NCBI GenBank assembly: GCA_003504275.1
Contig: DOAO01000006.1
Coordinates: 66,588-130,587, forward strand
From: Patescibacteria group bacterium
GTDB lineage: Bacteria; Patescibacteriota; Minisyncoccia; Phycocordibacterales; UBA12445
Direction of reading: 5' to 3'
DNA length: 64,000 nucleotides
A program made the position numbers and the translations under genes. The notes below the pieces were generated by a model. It did no database searches. It had not been told where the DNA came from and saw only the letters and a program-made list of their open reading frames with translations. This document shows, piece by piece, positions 781 through 12,089 of the stretch; positions within the stretch are counted from its first letter, which is position 1; the number at the start of each line of letters is the position of its first letter.

Positions 781-3000
781 TTAGGAGTCATCTAACCTAA
801 TTTGATTATCTGATAATGTTTCAACCCCACACTCGTCATCACTATTGTTTTGCATTTGTTGTGGATTGAAAAAAGTAGACGGAGAAATAAGTATTTTTCT
901 CTTGTCATTTGGGTCTTGTTCTTGATAAATAAGCCCTGAGGTTTCAAGAATGGGAATAATCTGCTGTCGGAGCTGTTGAGCATCTAACATGCGTCCATAA
1001 GCCTTGTAGTGCTTCTCTAGGATGTCTTGGCGAGTGATACCTAGCTTTGGTGTCTCATTGAATACTTGCGACTGAAGCTCATTTTTTTCTTTGTATACAG
1101 GAACAATGATTTGAGTATAAATGTCGTAGATAAATGGAGGCAGATTGAGCTCTTGGCTGATTGATATTTTTTCCCAAAGTTTGAAAGCTTGCTCTATATC
1201 ATCATCGTTCGCTGTGATAGTGGACCCGTTTCGTTCTCTCCACCATAGATTAAGTAATGCGAACGACTTCACAAGCGAAATAAGTCTCTTTATGTCTCGT
1301 TGGTGGCGAGGTTGTAATTTCTTATCCTGCTTGAAAAATCTCTCAAAGATTTTTTCTTGATTTGATATCTTGATGTCATCAATGTGTTCTTGTCTGATTG
1401 CTTGGATACGGAGCTTGAGTTGTTTTCTCTTTGGGTCGTTATCAAGCCATGCTTTGTATTTTTCATTGTCTGCTTCTTTGCGGATTGTGTTTGAAATACC
1501 TGCGTGAATTTTTTCTTGATTGACTTCGGGGGAAAGTAAGATGAAGCGTGTTTGTTCTTGTGGGTCCATACGAAGCCCTGCCGTGCAGAATATAACTGAT
1601 GGATAGCCCTTGAGTGCGATTGTCTTTGTGCGGTTTCCACCTTTCTGGTTCTTGTCTGTTATCTTGGAATACATTATCTTTTCATCGTGTGAAAGAAATG
1701 AACGGAGCCCCTCTAGCAATCCTGTATGTGGCATATCTGTGAATATGAGTATCTTTCGTGAAAGGTCTACGGTAATTTCATTCGTTTCTTTGTTGTAGCT
1801 TCCTTGCTCGTGGAAGAAAGCCGTCTTTGAACAGTTGCCGAGCTTTATAACATCCTCATTCGGGAAAAGTTTTGATACTTCCAAAGCAATGTAGCTTTTA
1901 CCCGTGCTTGAAGGACTATTAAATGAGACATTGAATTGAGCATCTTCCGTATAAGCCGAGAGCTGACAGAGAAAAGTAACGATTTTATTTTCATTGTCAT
2001 TTTTAATTGTGAGCTCAAGTGCTTTTGATAGTTCCTCTGGTGTGAGGGATTGAAATTGAGATGGGTCAATGCGTTCAGGATATTCCTTTGCATATTTATC
2101 AAATAGGTCTGGGATTAAAAGGTTAAGTTTTGTTAAGTAGTCTGTTATGTCTCCGCCATCTCCGACTTCTTCGGGAAGCGTGATGTGATAGAGGTTCCGT
2201 AATCCAACATTTTCCAATATTTTAAGCACCTTTATGGACCCTTTTTTACCTGCCCCATCGTTATCAAAACAAATATAGATTTTCTGACATTTTCTGATGT
2301 CCGCATCAATCCATTCTTCCTTAAATGTGCCTGCCCCGTGCGTAGAAGTAAGAGCAAAGCACCCCTCTGAGATGAGAGCTAGTGCATCAAGTTCTCCTTC
2401 GCAGATAATTTGATTTTCTTCTGATGGTGCATACATTCCAAATAATTGTGCCTCTGCACCTTTTGGATATGTGATTTTTCCGTCGCCGTCTTTTGGGTCC
2501 TGTCGTAGTTTGAAGAATTTATAGCCATCATCGTCCATTACTGGAATAGTGATGTAATTCTTGCCGTAGAATGTGCCATAGCCGAGCCTGTAGCTGTCTA
2601 CAATGCCATTTATGATGCCTCGTTCGTTGAGATATGTTCGTATACGGTCTGGCATTTGCTCGTGGCATTTCTGCACGAGTTCATCTGTAAATCTTGGTCC
2701 ACGATATGATGATGCACGCTGTGGGGTAGTTTTATCTCCGAAGTGTTTTTGTAGCGTGATAATGTTTCCTTTCTCTCCGCATTTTTTGCACTCGTATTGC
2801 GAAGTGTCTTTGTTGAAGTAGAGATGTGCTTCGCTTCCAGTGCTGTTTTTATCGCAGTCATTAAAAATACATTTGGCGATAAGTTCCTGTCCGTTCTCAT
2901 GATGGGTGATACCTTTTTGTGAGAGATATTCTGCTATGTTTATTTTCGTCATATATTGTAATTTATTAGTGATGAATGATGATTGGTATGTCTTTCGCAA
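781..3000 (-). CDS. Phage/plasmid-type DNA primase: CHC2 zinc finger plus Toprim (DnaG-like) domain, with a C-terminal putative P-loop NTPase region (P4-family-like).
   Basis: The N-terminus has a C-x4-C ... H ... C-x2-C pattern (CIFNDC...AHLYF...CKKCGEKG). Toprim acidic motifs ICEGELDALAL and YICFDNDGAG are present. The C-terminal part has a Walker-A-like SPSSTGKS. Confidence 0.7.
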   Translation of the reverse strand: MRKTYQSSFITNKLQYMTKINIAEYLSQKGITHHENGQELIAKCIFNDCDKNSTGSEAHLYFNKDTSQYECKKCGEKGNIITLQKHFGDKTTPQRASSYRGPRFTDELVQKCHEQMPDRIRTYLNERGIINGIVDSYRLGYGTFYGKNYITIPVMDDDGYKFFKLRQDPKDGDGKITYPKGAEAQLFGMYAPSEENQIICEGELDALALISEGCFALTSTHGAGTFKEEWIDADIRKCQKIYICFDNDGAGKKGSIKVLKILENVGLRNLYHITLPEEVGDGGDITDYLTKLNLLIPDLFDKYAKEYPERIDPSQFQSLTPEELSKALELTIKNDNENKIVTFLCQLSAYTEDAQFNVSFNSPSSTGKSYIALEVSKLFPNEDVIKLGNCSKTAFFHEQGSYNKETNEITVDLSRKILIFTDMPHTGLLEGLRSFLSHDEKIMYSKITDKNQKGGNRTKTIALKGYPSVIFCTAGLRMDPQEQTRFILLSPEVNQEKIHAGISNTIRKEADNEKYKAWLDNDPKRKQLKLRIQAIRQEHIDDIKISNQEKIFERFFKQDKKLQPRHQRDIKRLISLVKSFALLNLWWRERNGSTITANDDDIEQAFKLWEKISISQELNLPPFIYDIYTQIIVPVYKEKNELQSQVFNETPKLGITRQDILEKHYKAYGRMLDAQQLRQQIIPILETSGLIYQEQDPNDKRKILISPSTFFNPQQMQNNSDDECGVETLSDNQIRLDDS

Positions 3001-3281: not shown

Positions 3282-3668
3282 TTATTCGGAAGAATGGATA
3301 CGATTTTTTAACATTCTTAAGGCATCAAAATAAACTAAAGATTTTATTTCTAGTCTTCCATTCCAGTGGTCATCAATATCTTGTTCAATTCCGACCTCTC
3401 GTTTGAATATGAATAAAACTTTTCGCTGGTCTTGCTTATCTAAGGCGACTAGCTCAAACCCACGAGAAACTAACGAACTGCTCAAACCCAAATCTTGAGT
3501 CTGAAAATACTCTTTTGAGTTTTCCAAAGAGGTATATTCAAAATTATTTTTTTCTTTTTTTGTGTTTTGCATATAGTTTTGCTTAATAATTTGTAATATT
3601 GAGAGTGTTCCTGCTCTCAACCTATGTGCTGAAAAAACAGTGAAAAAGAAAAAACCGCTATATTTCAA
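3282..3668 (-). CDS. Hypothetical protein.
   Basis: 128-aa ORF. The true start may be an internal Met. No motif recognised. Confidence 0.4.
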   Translation of the reverse strand: MKYSGFFFFTVFSAHRLRAGTLSILQIIKQNYMQNTKKEKNNFEYTSLENSKEYFQTQDLGLSSSLVSRGFELVALDKQDQRKVLFIFKREVGIEQDIDDHWNGRLEIKSLVYFDALRMLKNRIHSSE

Positions 3669-3712: not shown

Positions 3713-6196
3713 TCAAACTTCAGTGAGGTATTGCATTGCTCTCGTATCTTGGATTTCAAGATTTCTCAACTCTTTTTCTGGGGTGATTTTCAACAAAGGA
3801 TTGTATCCTCGCACTGTCTTATCAAAAGGTATTGGTTCTTCTGTTATTTCAAAATACTCACACAATGCTTTTGAGAGAGCTGACTTGTATGTTTGAAATA
3901 AACCTTTCTTTTCCTTGCTCCTTGAAAAAGCATTTTTACAGAAATTGAACATATTATCCGGGGTCAAATAAAAATCTGTATTGCCTTGTCTTTTAGTTTT
4001 AGTAAATGAGAGTGCTTGCAGTATTTTCCAAGAGACATTATCTGATTTTTTGAAGCCGAAGATTTCGTAATCTCCTTTGTTTTTTAGTTTTCCTTTTACA
4101 AGTATTTCAATGTTGTTGTCATCTGTGAACTTAATTTCAATATCGGACCAGCTCAATTTTGGTTTTTGAGCCGTATCGGCTTTATTGTTTTTGTGAAGAT
4201 TACTTTTCTTTACAGAAAACATCCTTTCTTTGTTTCTGTTTATGAGCTCTTGTTTTTCATCAGTTAGCTCAAAAGCTCTAGTGATGGTTTCTTTTGCTTT
4301 TTTCACATCTCCTTTTTCTTCATAAATCAAAGCAAGATTGTTCAATATTGAAGAACTCGTGTCCTCAATGCTCTCGTATACTTTTTGAGCTTCGTCCACT
4401 CTTTCTACCTCGTTGAGAGAGTAGGCAACCTCAAACCTTCTGTCAAAGAAAGTGTATCCGTCCTCAAGTTCTTCTGGTGCAAAGAAAAGCTCCAGCGTTT
4501 GGCCTTCAAGCAAGGAATAAATATCAGAGATTGTGTTGTGTTGTTTTTTCTTGAAAAGTTCTTCAATATCCTTGCTGAACATTTCCTTGAAATATCTTTC
4601 TGCCCGCACATCACGGCTTGGCGGTTTTGCTATTTCTTCTTTGATAGTTGTTGCGTAATTATACAAGAAATCGTCACTACATTCTGCAATGTCTGTATAA
4701 ATCCACTCCTTTCCTCCAGAGAGAACATATTTGAGCTTGTAGACAACGGCATTGTCATACTGTTTTATACGATAATACCCGTGAGCCAACAGATACAGGT
4801 CAAAGAGAGTTTCTTTTGTATTTTTCTTTATTTCGTTGAGTAGTCCTTCAATCTCTTTTTTGTTATTTTCTGACAATACAGTTTCGTCTTGGTAAAGAAA
4901 CTTCTTGAAAAGATAAATTGCCGTTAATTTCGTTTTATCGCTGATATTATTTTTGATTGCATACTGGATTTCATCAAGGAAGAATTGTTTTGTAGGTAGC
5001 TCCATTTGGAATACAAAATAATCATTCATTGATATGCTCTCAATTTGTTTACACATCTGGGATAGGGTGTTTTCTATGCCGACATCGTCCTTGAGTTTCA
5101 GATAGATAGAAAACATATAAATATGGCATCCCAAGAGCAATTCTGTGTCGCCGATATTTTCTATAGTTTCCTTGAAATATTTCAAACTCTCACTATATTT
5201 TTCTTGCTCGTAATAAAGAACGCCTCGCAAATATGAGTTGATGTTGTCGTTCAAATAGTTCCACGGAGTATGTATTTCTGGTTCGTTCTGTAGTATCTCC
5301 TTACACATATCAAACTGTTTGCTTTTCAAGAAAAAGACAAAAGATAGGCGAACAAAGTCGTTTGAGTAGATAGCTCTTTTTAATTCTTCATAGTTCTCCT
5401 TATAAAATTTTTTGAAGTTCTCAACCTCTTGATTATCTGATTTTGTGTAGTAATCAAAAGTTGCCCTGAGAGCTGGCTCGTATTTGGAGTTTTTAGTCAA
5501 AACTTTCTTTGCAAGATTGAACCTTTTGAGTAGACTGGTTTCTTTTTCAAAATAAAGCCCAATGTATTCTTGTTTTGCGAGCATCAAGTTTTCTGGCTTT
5601 TCGTCGTAAAGGTTTGAGAGTTTTCTGAGAGCAAATGACTTGTGCCAGTAGTTATCATCGTAGTTCGTGAGCGTATCATCAAGGTTATTTTTCATTAAAA
5701 TAAATAAAAGATTTCCTTCTATTTTTTGAGTTGAAACTTTGAGAAAATCTGAACCAGTCAAGAAACGTAAAATCTCTGATTGAGGAGATTGGATACTTTC
5801 AACATAGATATGAAATAGGGTTTCTTCGTAATCTTTTTTTATTTCTTCAATAGAAATTGTTTTTGTTTTTTGGATATGAAAATTACCGTTCAGTAGGTCC
5901 AGTGTTGTCATCGTGTGTGTGATTTCAAACTTGTTATTTTTATCTTTTTTATATTCTTGTTTTGTAACGTCTATGAGTAAATAATCTATATCATCTTTTC
6001 GGAGCTTCTCTATTTCTTTTTTGTCTAAGACTCCGATTCTTCCCAAGAAATCAATAGAAAACCAAAGCATGTTTTGGTCGTTTGAGAAATTTATTTCATC
6101 AAAGAATGATTTATCATCATTCTTGTCTATTGTTTTATCTACTGGTTTTATTTTGGGCATAGTGTAATTGTAATTTATCTTTAAGCATCCTAGCAT
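3713..6196 (-). CDS. Large alpha-helical TPR-like repeat protein of unknown function, divergent from the Type III R-M operon.
   Basis: 827-aa ORF with many TPR-like helical pairs (for example YYRIKQYDNAVVYKLKYVL, EEKGDVKKAKETITRAFEL). No catalytic motif seen. Confidence 0.65.
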   Translation of the reverse strand: MLGCLKINYNYTMPKIKPVDKTIDKNDDKSFFDEINFSNDQNMLWFSIDFLGRIGVLDKKEIEKLRKDDIDYLLIDVTKQEYKKDKNNKFEITHTMTTLDLLNGNFHIQKTKTISIEEIKKDYEETLFHIYVESIQSPQSEILRFLTGSDFLKVSTQKIEGNLLFILMKNNLDDTLTNYDDNYWHKSFALRKLSNLYDEKPENLMLAKQEYIGLYFEKETSLLKRFNLAKKVLTKNSKYEPALRATFDYYTKSDNQEVENFKKFYKENYEELKRAIYSNDFVRLSFVFFLKSKQFDMCKEILQNEPEIHTPWNYLNDNINSYLRGVLYYEQEKYSESLKYFKETIENIGDTELLLGCHIYMFSIYLKLKDDVGIENTLSQMCKQIESISMNDYFVFQMELPTKQFFLDEIQYAIKNNISDKTKLTAIYLFKKFLYQDETVLSENNKKEIEGLLNEIKKNTKETLFDLYLLAHGYYRIKQYDNAVVYKLKYVLSGGKEWIYTDIAECSDDFLYNYATTIKEEIAKPPSRDVRAERYFKEMFSKDIEELFKKKQHNTISDIYSLLEGQTLELFFAPEELEDGYTFFDRRFEVAYSLNEVERVDEAQKVYESIEDTSSSILNNLALIYEEKGDVKKAKETITRAFELTDEKQELINRNKERMFSVKKSNLHKNNKADTAQKPKLSWSDIEIKFTDDNNIEILVKGKLKNKGDYEIFGFKKSDNVSWKILQALSFTKTKRQGNTDFYLTPDNMFNFCKNAFSRSKEKKGLFQTYKSALSKALCEYFEITEEPIPFDKTVRGYNPLLKITPEKELRNLEIQDTRAMQYLTEV

Positions 6197-6446: not shown

Positions 6447-8204
6447 ATGTCTACAAACAAATTACAATCAATAGAAAAAGCTAAAGGTAGAGCTATGCTC
6501 GTATGGGCTGGCAAGAAGCCTTTAGAGAGCATTGAATACTATCCTGCTCAAGAGAAAGAAATATACGGCAACAAGAAGTCGCAAGATTTTAATAAATTAT
6601 TTTGGGGAGATAATCTCCAAGTTCTCGCACACTTACTAAAAGAGTATCGTGGTAAAGTTGATTTGATATATATAGACCCTCCGTTTGATAGCAAGGCGGA
6701 TTATGTTAAATCAGTAAAAATGAAAGGTGAAAAGGTTGAGGGGGTTGAGCAAGGACTGCTTGAAGAAAAACAGTATGGCGATATTTGGGAAAAGGATGAG
6801 TATCTTCAATTTATGTATGAGCGTTTTTTAATTTTGAAAGAACTTTTGTCTGAAAATGGAAGTATATATTTACATTGTGATTGGCATAAAAACTCCCATC
6901 TTCGCTTGTTAATGGATGAAGTATTCAGTGAAGATAATTTTAGAAATGAAATTATCTGGCATTATTTTGTATCTGGAAAATATCCAAGTGAGTTTGCAAA
7001 AGACCACGATAATATCTATGTATATTCAAAAAGTAAAAACTCCACATTTAACTATGAGAAACAAGTAGACAAATATCTATATTATGAAAAGTTTTACAAT
7101 AAACAAATTGTTAAAGGAAAGGATGGAAAAGAATACTATGAATATAATGGAGAATTAAGAACGTTTGAAAAACAGGTTTCTGAAACTTGGAATATAAATA
7201 AAATTAAAAGAGACGGCAAAGAAATTGTTGGCTATCCTACACAAAAACCAGAAGAATTACTAGAAAGAATAATTAAAGCATCTTCAAATGAGGGCGATGT
7301 GGTCCTTGATTGTTTTTGTGGCTCTGGAACCACGATGGTTACCGCTCAAAAATTAGGTCGCCGATGGATTGGATGCGACATAAATCTCGGAGCGATACAA
7401 ACCTCCACAAAACGCCTCAATCAGATTATTGAGGAGCAGAAAAATGCTCTCGGTTTCAAAGTGCTCAATGTGAATGAATATACAGCGTTCAAAAATGAAC
7501 TTGAAGCGAAAGATATTGTGATGGAAATGTATGGCGTGGAGCCAATGAAGCGAAGTTATTTTGACGGAGTGCTTGATACTTCGTATGTGAAAGTGATGCC
7601 AATGAACAGGGTCCTCAACAAGCTAGATATGAAAACCTTGCTCAAGAATGTGAATGACAAGCTCGCTGATTTTACAGTCAAAAAGAAGTCCAAATCTGGC
7701 GAGGCGGTGTATGACGAGGGTGTGCTTGTCATCTGCTCTGGTATGGACCTTGAAGTTGCCGACTATCTCAAAAAAGAGAACAAGACGGGCGTGAAGATTG
7801 ATGTCCGAGACATTGCCACAGACAAGAAAAATCTCGTCTTTAAGAAACCACCAGAGGCAAATATTGAGGTGAAAGTAAAAGACAAAAATCTCTCCGTGTC
7901 GCTCAAAGAGTTCTATTCGCCTATAATGATGCGAAAATTAGAGATTGAAAACAGTAAAGCTCTCAAGAAAGAATACCAAGCAAAAGTTGAAGATTTCCGC
8001 CAGATTATTGATAGCGTGGCTATTGATGTGGATTATACAGGCGACCTTTTTAATGCCGAGATTATGGACCTGCCGACAAAGCGTGAGCTCATCAAAGCTG
8101 ACTACTCTTGGGGATATCCAAAGAAAGGCAAATACACTGTGGCAGTCAAAATCGTGGATGTGCTTGGCGAGGAATACTTTGAAACTTTTAGAGTAAATGT
8201 ATAA
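6447..8204 (+). CDS. mod: Type III restriction-modification methyltransferase (Mod; beta-class N6-adenine/N4-cytosine MTase).
   Basis: Motif IV DLIYIDPPF precedes motif I VVLDCFCGSGTT by about 200 aa, leaving room for a target-recognition domain. It is followed by a helicase-nuclease Res gene. Confidence 0.85.
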   Translation: MSTNKLQSIEKAKGRAMLVWAGKKPLESIEYYPAQEKEIYGNKKSQDFNKLFWGDNLQVLAHLLKEYRGKVDLIYIDPPFDSKADYVKSVKMKGEKVEGVEQGLLEEKQYGDIWEKDEYLQFMYERFLILKELLSENGSIYLHCDWHKNSHLRLLMDEVFSEDNFRNEIIWHYFVSGKYPSEFAKDHDNIYVYSKSKNSTFNYEKQVDKYLYYEKFYNKQIVKGKDGKEYYEYNGELRTFEKQVSETWNINKIKRDGKEIVGYPTQKPEELLERIIKASSNEGDVVLDCFCGSGTTMVTAQKLGRRWIGCDINLGAIQTSTKRLNQIIEEQKNALGFKVLNVNEYTAFKNELEAKDIVMEMYGVEPMKRSYFDGVLDTSYVKVMPMNRVLNKLDMKTLLKNVNDKLADFTVKKKSKSGEAVYDEGVLVICSGMDLEVADYLKKENKTGVKIDVRDIATDKKNLVFKKPPEANIEVKVKDKNLSVSLKEFYSPIMMRKLEIENSKALKKEYQAKVEDFRQIIDSVAIDVDYTGDLFNAEIMDLPTKRELIKADYSWGYPKKGKYTVAVKIVDVLGEEYFETFRVNV

Positions 8205-8206
8205 AT

Positions 8207-8653
8207 ATGCAAAACGACACTATAAAAATAAGCAAACAACTCTTACACCAAGCCGAGCTGATGGGTGGAAATAGCGAATACGCTAAGGCTATTACAAAAC
8301 TCAACGAAGCAATCAACCATCTTGTCTATTTTTCACCACCAGAAGAGCAACAACACGAAAAAATATCGTTGTTACACCAGTGTTTCTTTGACGCAGGACG
8401 GTATCATTCTGAATTAAAACATTTTGCCACTGCGATAGAAAATTTCATTACAGCAAAGCTATTTGCTGTGTCAAAAGATAACACAGACCAATTAGATAGA
8501 TGGATTGACGGGTCTTTAGATGAGTATGAATTTTTGATACAGGAGCCAGCCACGAAAGATATCGCACTTTCTGAATTGGATGAATTGCAAGACAAATTGT
8601 TTAAAAATAACATACCCGTTCTACCTCGTATTGAGAAATTGTTAAAACAATAA
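8207..8653 (+). CDS. Hypothetical alpha-helical protein encoded between mod and res and translationally coupled to both.
   Basis: Its start is 3 nt after the mod stop. Its stop TAA overlaps the res ATG (TAATG). 148 aa, no known motif. Confidence 0.6.
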   Translation: MQNDTIKISKQLLHQAELMGGNSEYAKAITKLNEAINHLVYFSPPEEQQHEKISLLHQCFFDAGRYHSELKHFATAIENFITAKLFAVSKDNTDQLDRWIDGSLDEYEFLIQEPATKDIALSELDELQDKLFKNNIPVLPRIEKLLKQ

Positions 8654-11196
8654 TGGAAAATCTATTTTTACAGAGTATAAAAGTCAAAGTATCCGAGTGG
8701 CGAGAAAACGGGTATCAAGGAGGCTTCAAGGAGAGCATAAACATTTTGAACTATGTGAAGCGTGTCGGCTTTTTACACGAGCCACAAATTGAAGCTCTTG
8801 AAACTTATATCTATATCAAGGAGGTTTTGGAAAATAAGCCAACGGGTGAAATTTTCAAAGACGCTTTTTCAAAGAAATCCGATTTGCTTCGTTCTCTTGG
8901 TGTGCCAGAGAGAAATATTTCGGACATTATGGAAGCCGATAATCGTGACGAGCAAATAACTGAAATCATTAAGGAAAAGTTTGGTTCTCAAGATTACGCA
9001 AATCAAGTTTATGCTCTTACAATGGGTTCGGGTAAGACAATTTTAATGGCGACTTTTTTAATATACGATTTCGTTCTTTCATACTATCATCCAGACGATG
9101 CACGCTTTGCAAAGAATGCTCTAGTCTTTGCTCCCGATACGACCATTATAGAGAGCTTAAAAGAGATAAAAACTTTTGATTATTCAAGGGTCTTGCCAAA
9201 GGAATATCAGAATATTTTGCTTAACATTAAGTATCACTACCTAGAGAGCACGGAAACAGGGCTCTCTCCGATTGGTAATTACAATGTCATCGTTTCAAAC
9301 TCGCAAAAGATAATTCTCAAAACAAGAAATAGTGATACGGACAATGGGGTAAAAAAGTTATTTGGAGATAAGGGGGAACTAGCAAAGCGTGAAGTAGAAA
9401 ATGCCCGTCTGCGTGCTATCCGAGAGCTCAATAACCTCATTATATTTGTAGATGAAGCTCATCACTCTTATGGTGTGAACCTTGAGGGTGCTTTGAAAAA
9501 GACACGCCAAACAATTGATTACTTGCACGGCAATACTCCGCTTGTGGGTGTTGTAAATCTCACAGGAACACCATATCTCAATAACAGGATGATAGACGAT
9601 GTTGTATATCACTTTGGGCTCAAACAAGGTATAGAAAAAGGCATCTTGAAACAAGTGAAGATATTGGATTTCGGAGAGGTCCGCTCGGAGATTTTCATTG
9701 AAGAAGTGCTCTCTACATTCTGGTCCGAGTATGGAGAAAATCGCCTCGAAGGTCGTCTGCCTAAAATGGCTTTCTATGCTCCTAATATTGATAATTTACA
9801 AAATGAACTCAAGCCTCGTATTGAGAGAATTCTCGCTGAGATGGATATACCTATTGATAAAGTCCTTGAGTATCACACCGAAGCAGAAGACAGTAAAGAT
9901 GAGTTTCGAATACTTGATACTATAGATAGTAAGAAACAGTTTGTGCTTCTTGTTGGTAAGGGGACCGAAGGATGGAACTGTCGCTCATTGGTTGCTTGTG
10001 CTCTCTATCGTAAGCCATCTAGCTCAATTTTTGTGCTCCAAGCATCTACACGCTGTATGAGGTCCATTGGAGATAATTCTACACGAGCCCATATATTCCT
10101 CTCAAAAGAAAACTATAAGGTATTAGATAAAGAGCTTAAGAACAACTTTGCTTCAAGCATTCAAGACATCAACAACCAAGAGCAAAAGAGCTTCGAGTTT
10201 GAAATTAAAGTTGAAAAGAAAAAGACCATCAAGGTAAAAAAGCTCATCCGAGATATTATTTCCACACAGGCAACAAATACAGACGATATCAAGATTGATA
10301 TTAAGAAATATAAACCAGAGAAATACGAGCACTATATCTTGGGTTCAGAACTTGTTGTAGATACTTCTGGCAAGGCAATTTTTAAGCACGATACGCTTGG
10401 CTCAAAGAAAATAAAAGAGAGTAATTCATATACCTATTATGAAATCGTAGAGCTTATCAATCGCTACACACATTTGCCATGTTTAGCGATAGGTAAATTA
10501 TTGGAAAATATCGGATTGTCTAGGAATGAGCTAGCAAGTAAAGTGAATACGAGTGTGGGGTTTTTACCCTTCATTATTCAATCTGTTCTTGAAACTGTTT
10601 ATCAGTATACGGAAACAGAAACAGCTACCGAAGAAGAAATTGAACTTACTAAAGAATACCCGTTTAAGATGAGCCGAGAGGAGGGTAAAAAAGCCCTTGT
10701 TGTATTTAAAGAAAAAGAGGAAGCAGACGGAGCTACAAGTCGTATCGGTTTTCATATCAACCCTTATAATTTTGACAGTAGCGATGAACGGGACCTGTTC
10801 CGACAATTCCGACAGCTTCTGGTAGATAAAGAGACGATTAAGGATGTTTACTTTAATGGTGGAGTTACTACCATTGCTCACAATGATTTTTATGTTGAAT
10901 ATTGGAACCCTACAGAACAGCGTATATCCAAGTATTTTCCAGACTTTTTGATAGAAACTGATAAGGGTCGTTTCTTGGTTGTAGAGGTAAAATCTGGGTC
11001 CGAAAAGACAGAGTATGAAGCAAACAAGAAACGCTACAATGGGACCAACACATCACTCTTTAATGAGGTATATGCTAAAGAGGTTGGCTTCCTAGATTTT
11101 CAAAAAGTGAATAAGGATTTTGAATACAAAGTCATCTTTGACGCTCACTTGCAAGAAAGACAGCGAGAGCTCTTTGAGATGATTAGAACTCTGTAA
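8653..11196 (+). CDS. res: Type III restriction enzyme Res subunit (SF2 helicase plus C-terminal PD-(D/E)xK nuclease).
   Basis: Walker A is TMGSGKTILMATF. The DEAH box is IIFVDEAHHS. The C-terminal segment YFPDFLIETDKGRFLVVEVKSG matches PD...D/ExK. Confidence 0.85.
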   Translation: MENLFLQSIKVKVSEWRENGYQGGFKESINILNYVKRVGFLHEPQIEALETYIYIKEVLENKPTGEIFKDAFSKKSDLLRSLGVPERNISDIMEADNRDEQITEIIKEKFGSQDYANQVYALTMGSGKTILMATFLIYDFVLSYYHPDDARFAKNALVFAPDTTIIESLKEIKTFDYSRVLPKEYQNILLNIKYHYLESTETGLSPIGNYNVIVSNSQKIILKTRNSDTDNGVKKLFGDKGELAKREVENARLRAIRELNNLIIFVDEAHHSYGVNLEGALKKTRQTIDYLHGNTPLVGVVNLTGTPYLNNRMIDDVVYHFGLKQGIEKGILKQVKILDFGEVRSEIFIEEVLSTFWSEYGENRLEGRLPKMAFYAPNIDNLQNELKPRIERILAEMDIPIDKVLEYHTEAEDSKDEFRILDTIDSKKQFVLLVGKGTEGWNCRSLVACALYRKPSSSIFVLQASTRCMRSIGDNSTRAHIFLSKENYKVLDKELKNNFASSIQDINNQEQKSFEFEIKVEKKKTIKVKKLIRDIISTQATNTDDIKIDIKKYKPEKYEHYILGSELVVDTSGKAIFKHDTLGSKKIKESNSYTYYEIVELINRYTHLPCLAIGKLLENIGLSRNELASKVNTSVGFLPFIIQSVLETVYQYTETETATEEEIELTKEYPFKMSREEGKKALVVFKEKEEADGATSRIGFHINPYNFDSSDERDLFRQFRQLLVDKETIKDVYFNGGVTTIAHNDFYVEYWNPTEQRISKYFPDFLIETDKGRFLVVEVKSGSEKTEYEANKKRYNGTNTSLFNEVYAKEVGFLDFQKVNKDFEYKVIFDAHLQERQRELFEMIRTL

Positions 11197-11200
11197 AAAT

Positions 11201-11389
11201 ATGCAAATATCAGACAAACATTTCTTGGAGTTTAAGAAGTTAATGAGAGATAAGGTGGGGGAGGAAAAATACAATAAAATGACAGAACAAGAACTCCTTG
11301 CAAGTGCAATCGCCTTAATAACTATGATGAAAGCGGTCTATAAACCAATCACAAAAGAGGCTTATGAAAAATACAAGAAAGCAAATTGA
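11201..11389 (+). CDS. Small hypothetical ORF downstream of res.
   Basis: 62-aa ORF with no clear ribosome-binding site. It overlaps the next small ORF. Confidence 0.25.
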   Translation: MQISDKHFLEFKKLMRDKVGEEKYNKMTEQELLASAIALITMMKAVYKPITKEAYEKYKKAN

Positions 11390-11562
11390 AGATAAAATGC
11401 CACAGTGTAAGGAGGCAGATTGCAATGAGCTATTAGTTGCTGATAATGACGGATATTGTCTTCGCCATATTTGTCCGCCTCCCATACCTTTGATACTTCA
11501 GTATCTTAATGAACAAGATACAAAGAAAAAAGAAAAGAATGAGGAAGTAAAATAAAAAAACT

Positions 11563-11802
11563 ATGGTCCATATATCTCCAGATACTGTTGAGAGGTTCAA
11601 ACAGATATTCAAAAGAGAATATGGTGTTGAATATTCTGATAGTGAAGCGTGGGAAGCTACTCATAATCTACTAGGGGCTTTTAATATTTTATTAAAAGAA
11701 GACAAAAAACAACATCCAGAGAATTATAAGAAGAAAATATATAGTGATGACGGAGGTGGGGTGATTATACAGACAAAATCTGATAAAATAATCTCGGAGT
11801 AG
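11563..11802 (+). CDS. Small hypothetical protein.
   Basis: 79-aa ORF with no motif. Confidence 0.3.
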   Translation: MVHISPDTVERFKQIFKREYGVEYSDSEAWEATHNLLGAFNILLKEDKKQHPENYKKKIYSDDGGGVIIQTKSDKIISE

Positions 11803-11836: not shown

Positions 11837-11982
11837 GGGGGTTGTGAATTAAGTCCGTCATCCGCCTCGTGCGGTGGATTTGTCCGAAAGGGCAGAGGGT
11901 AGCGGTGAAAAGCGATAACTGGCTTACGGGTGTATCAAGAGTGTTACTCTGACAAAGAACTTCCATCTGTGGGAGTTTTTTG
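11837..11982 (+). ncRNA. Candidate structured small RNA: a GC-rich ~145-nt segment ending in a T-run. Identity is unknown; a weak resemblance to an SRP-RNA helix-8 core is not convincing.
   Basis: GC-rich island in AT-rich DNA. It contains GUCCGAAAGGGCAGAGG with a GNRA tetraloop and ends GGGAGTTTTTTG. No coding potential. Confidence 0.2.
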
Positions 11983-12089
11983 TTTTATAATTACTTTGTT
12001 TTATCCGCTTCATACTCTCGCATAATGTGCATTAAGTAATCACACTCCTTCGCAAATTGGTTCCAAAATTGGCACCCTAAGTCCACAAA

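Follow-up and report, generated by a model that had tools for sequence, protein, structure and literature searches.

A variable slot between mod and res of a Type III-type restriction-modification operon holds an optional gene with a predicted three-TPR fold

We analyzed a stretch of 64,000 nucleotides (nt) from a Patescibacteria group bacterium (contig DOAO01000006.1, positions 66,588 to 130,587; referred to as the window here), in which a Type III-type restriction-modification (R-M) operon carries an extra open reading frame (ORF) of 148 amino acids (aa), called X here, between the methyltransferase gene mod and the restriction gene res. Our best reading is that X represents an uncharacterized family and that its position is the Type III counterpart of known gene embedding: about one-fifth of the operons of a large Type III family of the Candidate Phyla Radiation (CPR) have an additional gene, inserted at a single, exact inter-codon position. 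X itself is modeled as a small protein of tetratricopeptide repeats (TPRs), for which we tentatively propose a role as an exchangeable adaptor of Res.

The three genes run head to tail, each in a different frame (Table 1). The mod stop codon (TAA, 8202-8204) is separated from the X start codon (ATG, 8207) by the spacer AT, and X and res share one base. This agrees with an initial annotation of the stretch, made from the letters alone, which had described an extra, tightly packed, all-helical 148-aa gene starting next to the mod stop and ending in a TAATG overlap with res. No Shine-Dalgarno-like sequence was found ahead of any operon gene, promoter-like sites inside the operon are not in excess, and neither promoter-like nor terminator-like sites occur at either junction on the + strand, while the hairpin downstream of res likely ends the transcription unit. 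From the spacing, we infer that mod, X, and res are translationally coupled: ribosomes on the operon transcript would re-initiate at X after mod and at res after X, so that X and Res would be made together.

Table 1. Features of the R-M operon and its surroundings in the window
Feature	Position	Strand	Description
Toprim primase-like gene	781-3000	-	739 aa; recurs upstream of mod in L001 and L002
DUF5659 gene	3282-3668	-	recurs upstream of mod in L001 and L002
TPR-repeat protein gene	3713-6196	-	827 aa; divergent from mod
mod	6447-8204	+	585 aa; Type III-type beta-class N6-adenine DNA methyltransferase
mod central stretch	6953-7232	+	lacks a blastn match in L006, L030, and L034, three of the six closest relatives compared
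mod tail	8195-8206	+	final 10 nt of mod including TAA, and 2-nt spacer (AAATGTATAAAT)
X	8207-8653	+	148 aa; seven-helix, three-TPR-like; optional cassette gene
X/res junction	8651-8655	+	TAATG; one base common to X TAA (8651-8653) and res ATG (8653-8655)
res	8653-11196	+	847 aa; superfamily 2 (SF2) helicase-type restriction subunit
res 5' mosaic	8653-8672	+	first ~20 nt carry bases of a distant X-bearing clade
Three small ORFs	11201-11802	+	62, 63, and 79 aa; begin 4 nt past res
Terminator-like hairpin and T run	11951-11984	+	consensus match only

In the textbook view, Type III R-M systems consist of two genes, with the hallmarks of ATP-dependent cleavage at two inversely oriented unmodified sites and hemimethylation of one strand. 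In the present Mod, DPPF (residue 77, nt 6675-6686) lies ahead of FCGSGTT (residue 290, nt 7314-7334), i.e., motif IV precedes motif I, as is typical for beta-class enzymes, and the protein matches Pfam N6_N4_Mtase (1.1e-52), the PADLOC MTase_III model PDLC03633 (1.7e-74, residues 46-575 of 585), and, with residues 41-254, EcoP15I Mod (4zcf, 2.7e-22). Res contains the SF2 helicase/ATPase motifs GSGKT (residue 125, nt 9025-9039), DEAH (267, nt 9451-9462), and TGTP (304), followed by a C-terminal PD-(D/E)xK-type motif, PD (763-764)...EVK (778-780), at nt 10939-10992. It matches Pfam ResIII above the curated cutoff (1.3e-08) and, partially, the NCBIfam restriction endonuclease BPTD_3080 (3.7e-23), the nuclease assignment coming from the motif together with weak TnsA-like and REase_III matches (E of 0.025 to 0.03), and a sequence search of the PDB returned no detectable relative of Res. 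The motifs had thus not been misread, and since Mod and Res are two distinct polypeptides, encoded in different frames, the pair is of Type III type rather than a single-chain Type IIG or ISP enzyme. About 80% of the relatives are strictly two-gene systems; with its third gene, this locus deviates from the canonical number.

The mod gene also has a variable part of its own. Outside the central stretch listed in Table 1, the flanks are 78 to 84% identical to L006, L030, and L034 (related loci are designated by L numbers), while L008 and L009 align straight across it and L007 lacks that part of mod. This stretch is probably the target-recognition region, which would mean that near-identical operons differ in their recognition sequence.

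Occupancy of the slot and exchange of its cassettes

Two separate samples of loci were compared: the contigs carrying X homologues (L001 to L004), and the loci retrieved by scans with Res, which covered 45 species-representative genomes (43 with an informative junction) and 80 metagenome loci (73 informative), almost all from Patescibacteria/CPR. In the first sample, the gene order is mod-X-res (L001 and L002) or mod-Y-X-res (L003 and L004), where Y is an extra cysteine-rich gene of 161 aa. The homologues in other mod-res loci that the initial annotation called for were therefore found, and the conserved order that it envisaged holds for these contigs; it does not extend to the 116 operons found via Res, where mod and res are directly adjacent in 36 of 43 genome loci and 57 of 73 metagenome loci (∼80% of ∼116). 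An insert is present in the remaining 7 and 16 loci, respectively (23 of ∼116, roughly 20%). The canonical junction of the family consists of the mod stop, 2 to 5 nt, and the res ATG, with an occasional 1-nt overlap or a distance of up to 8 nt.

Three operons whose Res is 89 to 92% and whose Mod is 75 to 79% identical to those of the window nevertheless lack X (L006, L007, and L030), and two others with an equally similar Res carry an unrelated 100-aa gene instead (L008 and L060). By blastn, positions 7233-8208 and 8653-11190 of the window align to the contiguous segments 5025-6000 and 6001-8538 of L006, leaving 8209-8652 as a clean 444-bp insertion, relative to this operon, that falls exactly between mod and res. 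The existence of a two-gene operon with ∼91% identical Res argues that X is not an obligatory specificity or assembly subunit.

Clustering of the slot occupants by all-against-all blastp gave 12 unrelated families, so that, at this level of sequence comparison, the slot families number at least 12. The commonest is TPRb, comprising TPR proteins of 119 to 129 aa, at nine loci. The others are X (148 aa, TPR-like), the cysteine-rich Y (161 aa), the uncharacterized u100 (100 aa), u63, a GGACT/AIG2-like enzyme, a T5orf172/MUG113 protein that corresponds to the PADLOC candidate PDC-S57 (7.4e-69, in L026), a membrane protein of 230 aa, and four additional uncharacterized families of 62 to 115 aa. Together with the near-identical Res proteins without X, this diversity speaks against the earlier suggestion that the third gene is a dedicated specificity or assembly factor. 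The slot usually contains a single gene of 60 to 230 aa, with two genes in L141 and L003. Cassette ORFs start 0 to 16 nt past the mod stop (30 nt in L048) and end anywhere from 8 nt inside res to 16 nt ahead of it; those that overlap res use as their stop the TAA within ATGGATAA, hence a recurrent ...NG* ending. In every case, the spacing is kept compatible with translational re-initiation, and it is so tight that attachment sites have no room. At one further locus (L043:1-1935), a Res homologue has no upstream mod recognizable by tblastn, and res is immediately preceded only by a mod-like 3' tail; here, mod may have decayed or been replaced.

The distribution of cassettes over the Res phylogeny points to exchange between operons. 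In neighbor-joining trees of Res, X occurs in two separate clades, and one shallow clade contains X, Y plus X, TPRb, u100, u63, GGACT, u106, and empty junctions intermixed. Two observations at the level of the sequence itself carry more weight than these trees. At the 5' end of the window's res, traces of a foreign lineage can be read directly: 61 sites within the first 300 nt differ between the X-bearing clade and the clade of the window itself, and the leading four (positions 10, 16, 18, and 19) are of the foreign type, whereas 52 of the remaining 57 are of the own-clade type (P of about 3e-5 for the leading run). By these diagnostic sites, a recombination breakpoint lies within res, which is of own-clade type from nt 22 onward. 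On the other side of the cassette, AAATGTATAAAT, comprising the mod tail and the spacer, is identical to the mod 3' remnant ahead of X in L003, which argues that the mod 3' flank travels with the X cassette. Judged from these two flanks, X came with ∼12 nt of the mod 3' and ∼20 nt of the res 5' flank of another operon lineage. X-bearing Mods end in V, and A is found in about two-thirds of the empty-junction operons.

A second trace of exchange is preserved in L003, where the interval between Y and X measures 89 nt and has four parts: two spacer bases after the Y stop, the first 48 nt of res (MENPFLQHIQQKVAAW), 37 nt of the mod 3' end (...EEYFETFETNV*) joined at the microhomology CTTGGCGA, and two further spacer bases ahead of the X start. 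Recombination between a mod-Y-res and a mod-X-res operon would be expected to leave such a scar. The res mosaic and the L003 scar show that cassettes carry short mod 3' and res 5' pieces and are swapped by recombination in these conserved flanks. The starts of X (8207-8215, ATGCAAAAC) and res (8653-8661, ATGGAAAAT) resemble each other as well, matching at eight of nine bases when the ATGGAAAAC start of the closest relatives is counted, which may be coincidental or may reflect how the cassette was joined to a res start.

The X protein and other small TPR genes beside restriction subunits

The X sequence is identical to that of the hypothetical protein UT05_C0004G0054 of Parcubacteria group bacterium GW2011_GWF2_38_76. 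It has four homologues of 64 to 79% identity, with a range of 47 to 79% over all searches, its pairwise ratio of nonsynonymous to synonymous substitutions (dN/dS) is 0.06 to 0.20, similar to mod and res, and its guanine-plus-cytosine (GC) content equals that of the flanking genes. Its lack of database annotation could be taken to mean that X is a chance ORF and that the spacer between mod and res is unusually long, but this reading is refuted by the conservation and the selection signature, in addition to the GC content and a confidently modeled fold, so that we give it practically no credence. The dN/dS values indicate that X is under strong purifying selection.

An AlphaFold2 model of X, built on an alignment of only five sequences, has seven helices and a mean predicted local distance difference test (pLDDT) score of 94.2. 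When this model was compared to the PDB with Foldseek, the top ∼30 matches were almost all three-TPR domains (probability of 1.0, query TM-score [TMq] of 0.5 to 0.68, E of 1e-3 to 3e-2), the best being the peptide-binding domains of FKBP51/52, Sgt2/SGT, Sec72, CHIP, and Sti1 TPR2B, and its stacked repeats can be superimposed on solved TPR domains. The 148-aa product thus has a predicted fold, the absence of which would have spoken against the initial annotation. X shares with the FKBP51/52-type domains the seven helices, i.e., three helix-turn-helix repeats and a capping helix; in contrast, identity is only 10 to 19%, the root mean square deviation is 6 to 11 Å, and those proteins are eukaryotic co-chaperones, so that the modeled resemblance is one of architecture only. 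Among the X homologues, P0006 matches Pfam TPR_2 with 24.2 bits, under the 27-bit cutoff, and P0003 carries the JGI label "TPR repeat protein".

X has no significant match in Pfam, NCBIfam, PADLOC, or PHROGs. No ABC-ATPase or anticodon-nuclease domain, as in PrrC or RloC, appeared among the Pfam, NCBIfam, and PADLOC matches, and no family with a helix-turn-helix (HTH) DNA-binding domain, as in C proteins, among those of Pfam, the fold being that of a TPR protein; nor did the PADLOC models assign X to a defense family. Although X is acidic (isoelectric point of 5.2, net charge of about -8), it does not qualify as a DNA mimic of the Ocr/ArdA kind, given that it has no PHROG match and no relatives on viral contigs. 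Pattern scans with the X profile gave no relatives in the metagenome and viral contigs searched, and Foldseek against BFVD returned generic TPR proteins only. Three-TPR scaffolds bind another protein or peptide. According to the model, X is a free-standing protein- or peptide-binding scaffold of about three TPRs, without a catalytic or DNA-binding domain.

The X family comprises, apart from the window's X, the clusters of P0006 and P0007; elsewhere among the 1.84 billion representatives searched, the X profile gave weak repeat matches in large TPR proteins. P0006 (L052:697-2485) is 48% identical to X and lies outside any mod-res pair, 44 nt downstream of a gene whose 427-aa product has a weak match to Mrr_cat/restriction endonuclease. 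In P0007 (L051:711-1937), the X domain is fused to ∼260 residues with two MraZ/AbrB-like repeats and a cysteine-rich linker, where the MraZ call is a subthreshold Pfam match (E of 0.011); its C-terminal part has no match in the PDB, and a single-sequence AlphaFold model (pLDDT of 42) was unusable. The gene preceding P0007 in L051 encodes a 146-aa zinc-ribbon protein.

Small TPR genes recur next to restriction subunits beyond the X family. TPRb accounts for 9 of the 23 inserts from the Res-based scans, and it is the TPR gene that adjoins res in the two-cassette operons mod-Y-X-res (L003) and mod-T5orf172-TPRb-res (L141), with TPRb overlapping res by 8 nt in the latter (L141:4387-7896). In an otherwise unrelated Type I system (L139:2762-5405), TPRb is located 1 nt upstream of hsdR (TAA-T-ATG). 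The profiles of X and TPRb align weakly (hhalign E of 8.9e-5, probability of 60%) and have AIENF in common in the second repeat. A one-to-one homology of X to the TPR cassette of L023 was rejected (hhalign probability of 0.2%).

As for possible ligands, the C terminus of Mod, GEEYFETF(E/D)V-COOH, is conserved and acidic/aromatic. By analogy with EEVD-binding TPR domains, this tail might be a TPR ligand, but it is equally conserved in operons without a TPR gene, which makes the idea only a lead. The V ending of X-bearing Mods was considered as a signature of such a ligand; TPRb-bearing Mods do not have it, and the difference is explained by cotransfer of the flank.

Possible roles of X

The reading we favor, with somewhat less than even confidence, is that X is an optional, horizontally exchanged TPR adaptor, produced along with Res, on which it would act. 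X would bind Res or the Mod2Res complex through a putative contact and would tune the nuclease-ATPase by stabilizing, restraining, or gating it, while being dispensable for basic restriction or modification. Our confidence is much higher for the part of this reading that describes an optional mobile cassette, and low for Res as the binding partner. An action on the restriction subunit is suggested by the small TPR genes, which are the commonest occupants of the slot, adjoin res in the two-cassette operons, and lie 1 nt from hsdR in the Type I system; the X homologue that follows an Mrr-like nuclease gene in L052 points to the same partner. A wider version, which we regard as rather doubtful, holds that the slot is dedicated and serviced by recombination and that X and TPRb form a new class of optional, exchangeable partners of restriction subunits. 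Under this version, translational coupling would make the TPR proteins stoichiometric with Res or Type I HsdR, and their docking would gate or stabilize the nuclease-ATPase or sense phage interference.

Several observations weigh against an adaptor of this kind. X is missing from all 116 operons found via Res, which suggests that selection for it is weak or local, and its family is very small, an exhaustive HMMER search of the 1.84 billion representatives having given only three clusters at E<1e-30. The sequence of X has no Pfam TPR match (E≤0.1), so that its repeats are recognized in the fold and not by sequence, and the similarity between X and TPRb may be generic to TPR repeats rather than a sign of distant homology. 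TPRb is also not always adjacent to a restriction subunit gene, since in L140:5001-5396 it precedes a DUF4268 gene within a Type I/Mrr island. With regard to exchange, the neighbor-joining trees were unbootstrapped and their topology is indicative only, and the proportion of synonymous differences (pS) in X is about 0.75 to 0.8 times that in res within and between clades alike, which means that transfer cannot be separated from codivergence on this measure. Finally, the other occupants of the slot include enzymes, a membrane protein, and a candidate defense gene, and this variety fits generic cargo equally well.

Such cargo would make the mod|res junction a well-expressed "genomic sink" and X a gene that hitchhikes on an addictive mobile operon. 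The GGACT/AIG2-type enzyme and the membrane protein among the at least 12 unrelated families, the ∼80% of operons with an empty junction, the rarity of X, and the mobile-element-like Toprim/DUF5659 backbone of the operon are all in line with this explanation, which we nevertheless consider unlikely: small TPR genes are overrepresented among the slot occupants (9 of 23, and X in addition) and proximal to res in L003 and L141, TPRb is tightly coupled to hsdR in an unrelated Type I system, and the purifying selection on X is strong. We find it equally unlikely, at a similar level, that X is an embedded guardian or sensor whose TPR surface recognizes a phage protein, e.g., an antirestriction factor, and alters Res or another effector. 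TPR domains do act as sensors in known immune proteins. Defense genes of the same orientation are embedded in R-M, BREX, and DISARM loci (10.1101/2024.01.29.577857), with PrrC in EcoprrI (PMC12707154) and RonA of Ronin beside hsdMS (10.1101/2023.04.06.535777) as precedents, the L026 cassette in the same slot is the PADLOC candidate PDC-S57 (7.4e-69), and u100 recurs beside a toxin-antitoxin pair, Shedu-like and Type II loci, and another Type III locus. X itself, however, has neither an effector domain nor a PADLOC or PHROG match, its relatives are absent from the viral contigs scanned, and a 148-aa protein of this kind could act only via another protein.

The initial annotation had also offered the view of a core third subunit or obligatory regulator, for specificity, assembly, or control of self-restriction. 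X is packed tightly against both neighbors, the mod-X-res order is kept in four other contig families, and between mod-X-res loci the conservation of X equals or exceeds that of Mod and Res. On the other hand, the operons with 89 to 92% identical Res and 75 to 79% identical Mod lack X (L006, L007, and L030), or an unrelated gene takes its place (L008 and L060), none of the 116 Res-found operons has it, and X lacks a DNA-binding domain, HTH or otherwise, that would suit a controller. Judging by these sequence comparisons, the core-subunit view is largely refuted, and we consider it very improbable.

Genomic setting and comparison with known systems

A mobile-element-like backbone appears to carry the operon, as indicated by the upstream genes that recur in L001 and L002 (Table 1), where the module also holds an HTH_17/MerR excisionase-like gene; no tRNA gene was found within 20 kb. 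The 827-aa TPR protein encoded divergently from mod is 81 to 84% conserved in L008 and L030, whatever occupies the mod-res slot, and is unrelated to X; an origin of X from this protein was rejected, as BLASTP gave only an E of 0.047 over 20 residues. Downstream, homologues of the 79-aa ORF lie directly 3' of res in L012, L016, L049, L022, and L047, Y-like and u100-like genes follow res in L115, and a u100-like gene does so in L090, which suggests a second variable slot downstream of res. Outside the slot, members of the u100 family in L053 to L058 adjoin a RelB/YafQ toxin-antitoxin pair or a Shedu SduA_C gene, or lie downstream of another mod-res pair or of a methyltransferase/MutH-like Type II pair; from these contexts, u100 looks like a defense-island-associated small gene.

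The slot offers a natural system in which to see how defense operons gain add-ons while the balance of mod and res expression stays intact, and it yields a dozen small uncharacterized accessory or defense candidates from organisms with poorly known immunity. If TPR proteins do partner Type III and Type I restriction subunits, they would add a new regulatory layer to ATP-dependent restriction enzymes and represent a third, exchangeable type of subunit for them.

The present operon resembles EcoP15I and EcoP1I (mod-res, Mod2Res1) in its beta-class N6-adenine Mod with a variable central region, in the SF2 helicase motifs and C-terminal PD-(D/E)xK of Res, and in the location of mod upstream within one tightly packed operon. 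It differs from them in the third gene between mod and res, in a Res without a sequence relative in the PDB and with a marginal PADLOC REase_III match, and in the essential confinement of its family to CPR/Patescibacteria metagenome-assembled genomes. Type II C proteins are likewise encoded by a small gene upstream of, and coexpressed with, the endonuclease gene, but they are HTH DNA binders of ∼80 to 100 aa acting on C-boxes, whereas X has no HTH and is all TPR.

The closest parallel is gene embedding, which has been described within Hma, BREX, DISARM, and Type I R-M systems in a survey that did not take in Type III R-M (Payne et al., 10.1101/2024.01.29.577857). The literature we searched, which was incomplete, contained no prior account of a gene placed between mod and res, none of a restriction subunit with a TPR partner, and no embedding catalogue for Type III. 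X has the marks of an embedded gene: it lies on the same strand within one defense system and is missing from homologous hosts. As in the survey, variable genes of the same orientation stand between system genes and are absent from most homologous hosts, and one cassette of the present slot is its candidate family PDC-S57. Here, in contrast, the host is of Type III, there is a single inter-codon slot with preserved coupling geometry, scars of flank-mediated exchange are visible, small TPR proteins are prominent, and X has no PADLOC match. PrrC, the classic embedding case from the Type IC locus EcoprrI (PMC12707154), and RonA, a toxic effector of 61 aa adjoining hsdS/hsdM (10.1101/2023.04.06.535777), are accessory genes nested in R-M operons as well, and their products are thought to contact the R-M complex. 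PrrC, however, is an ABC-ATPase/anticodon nuclease and RonA a toxic effector, whereas X is predicted to be an effector-less TPR scaffold in a Type III host.

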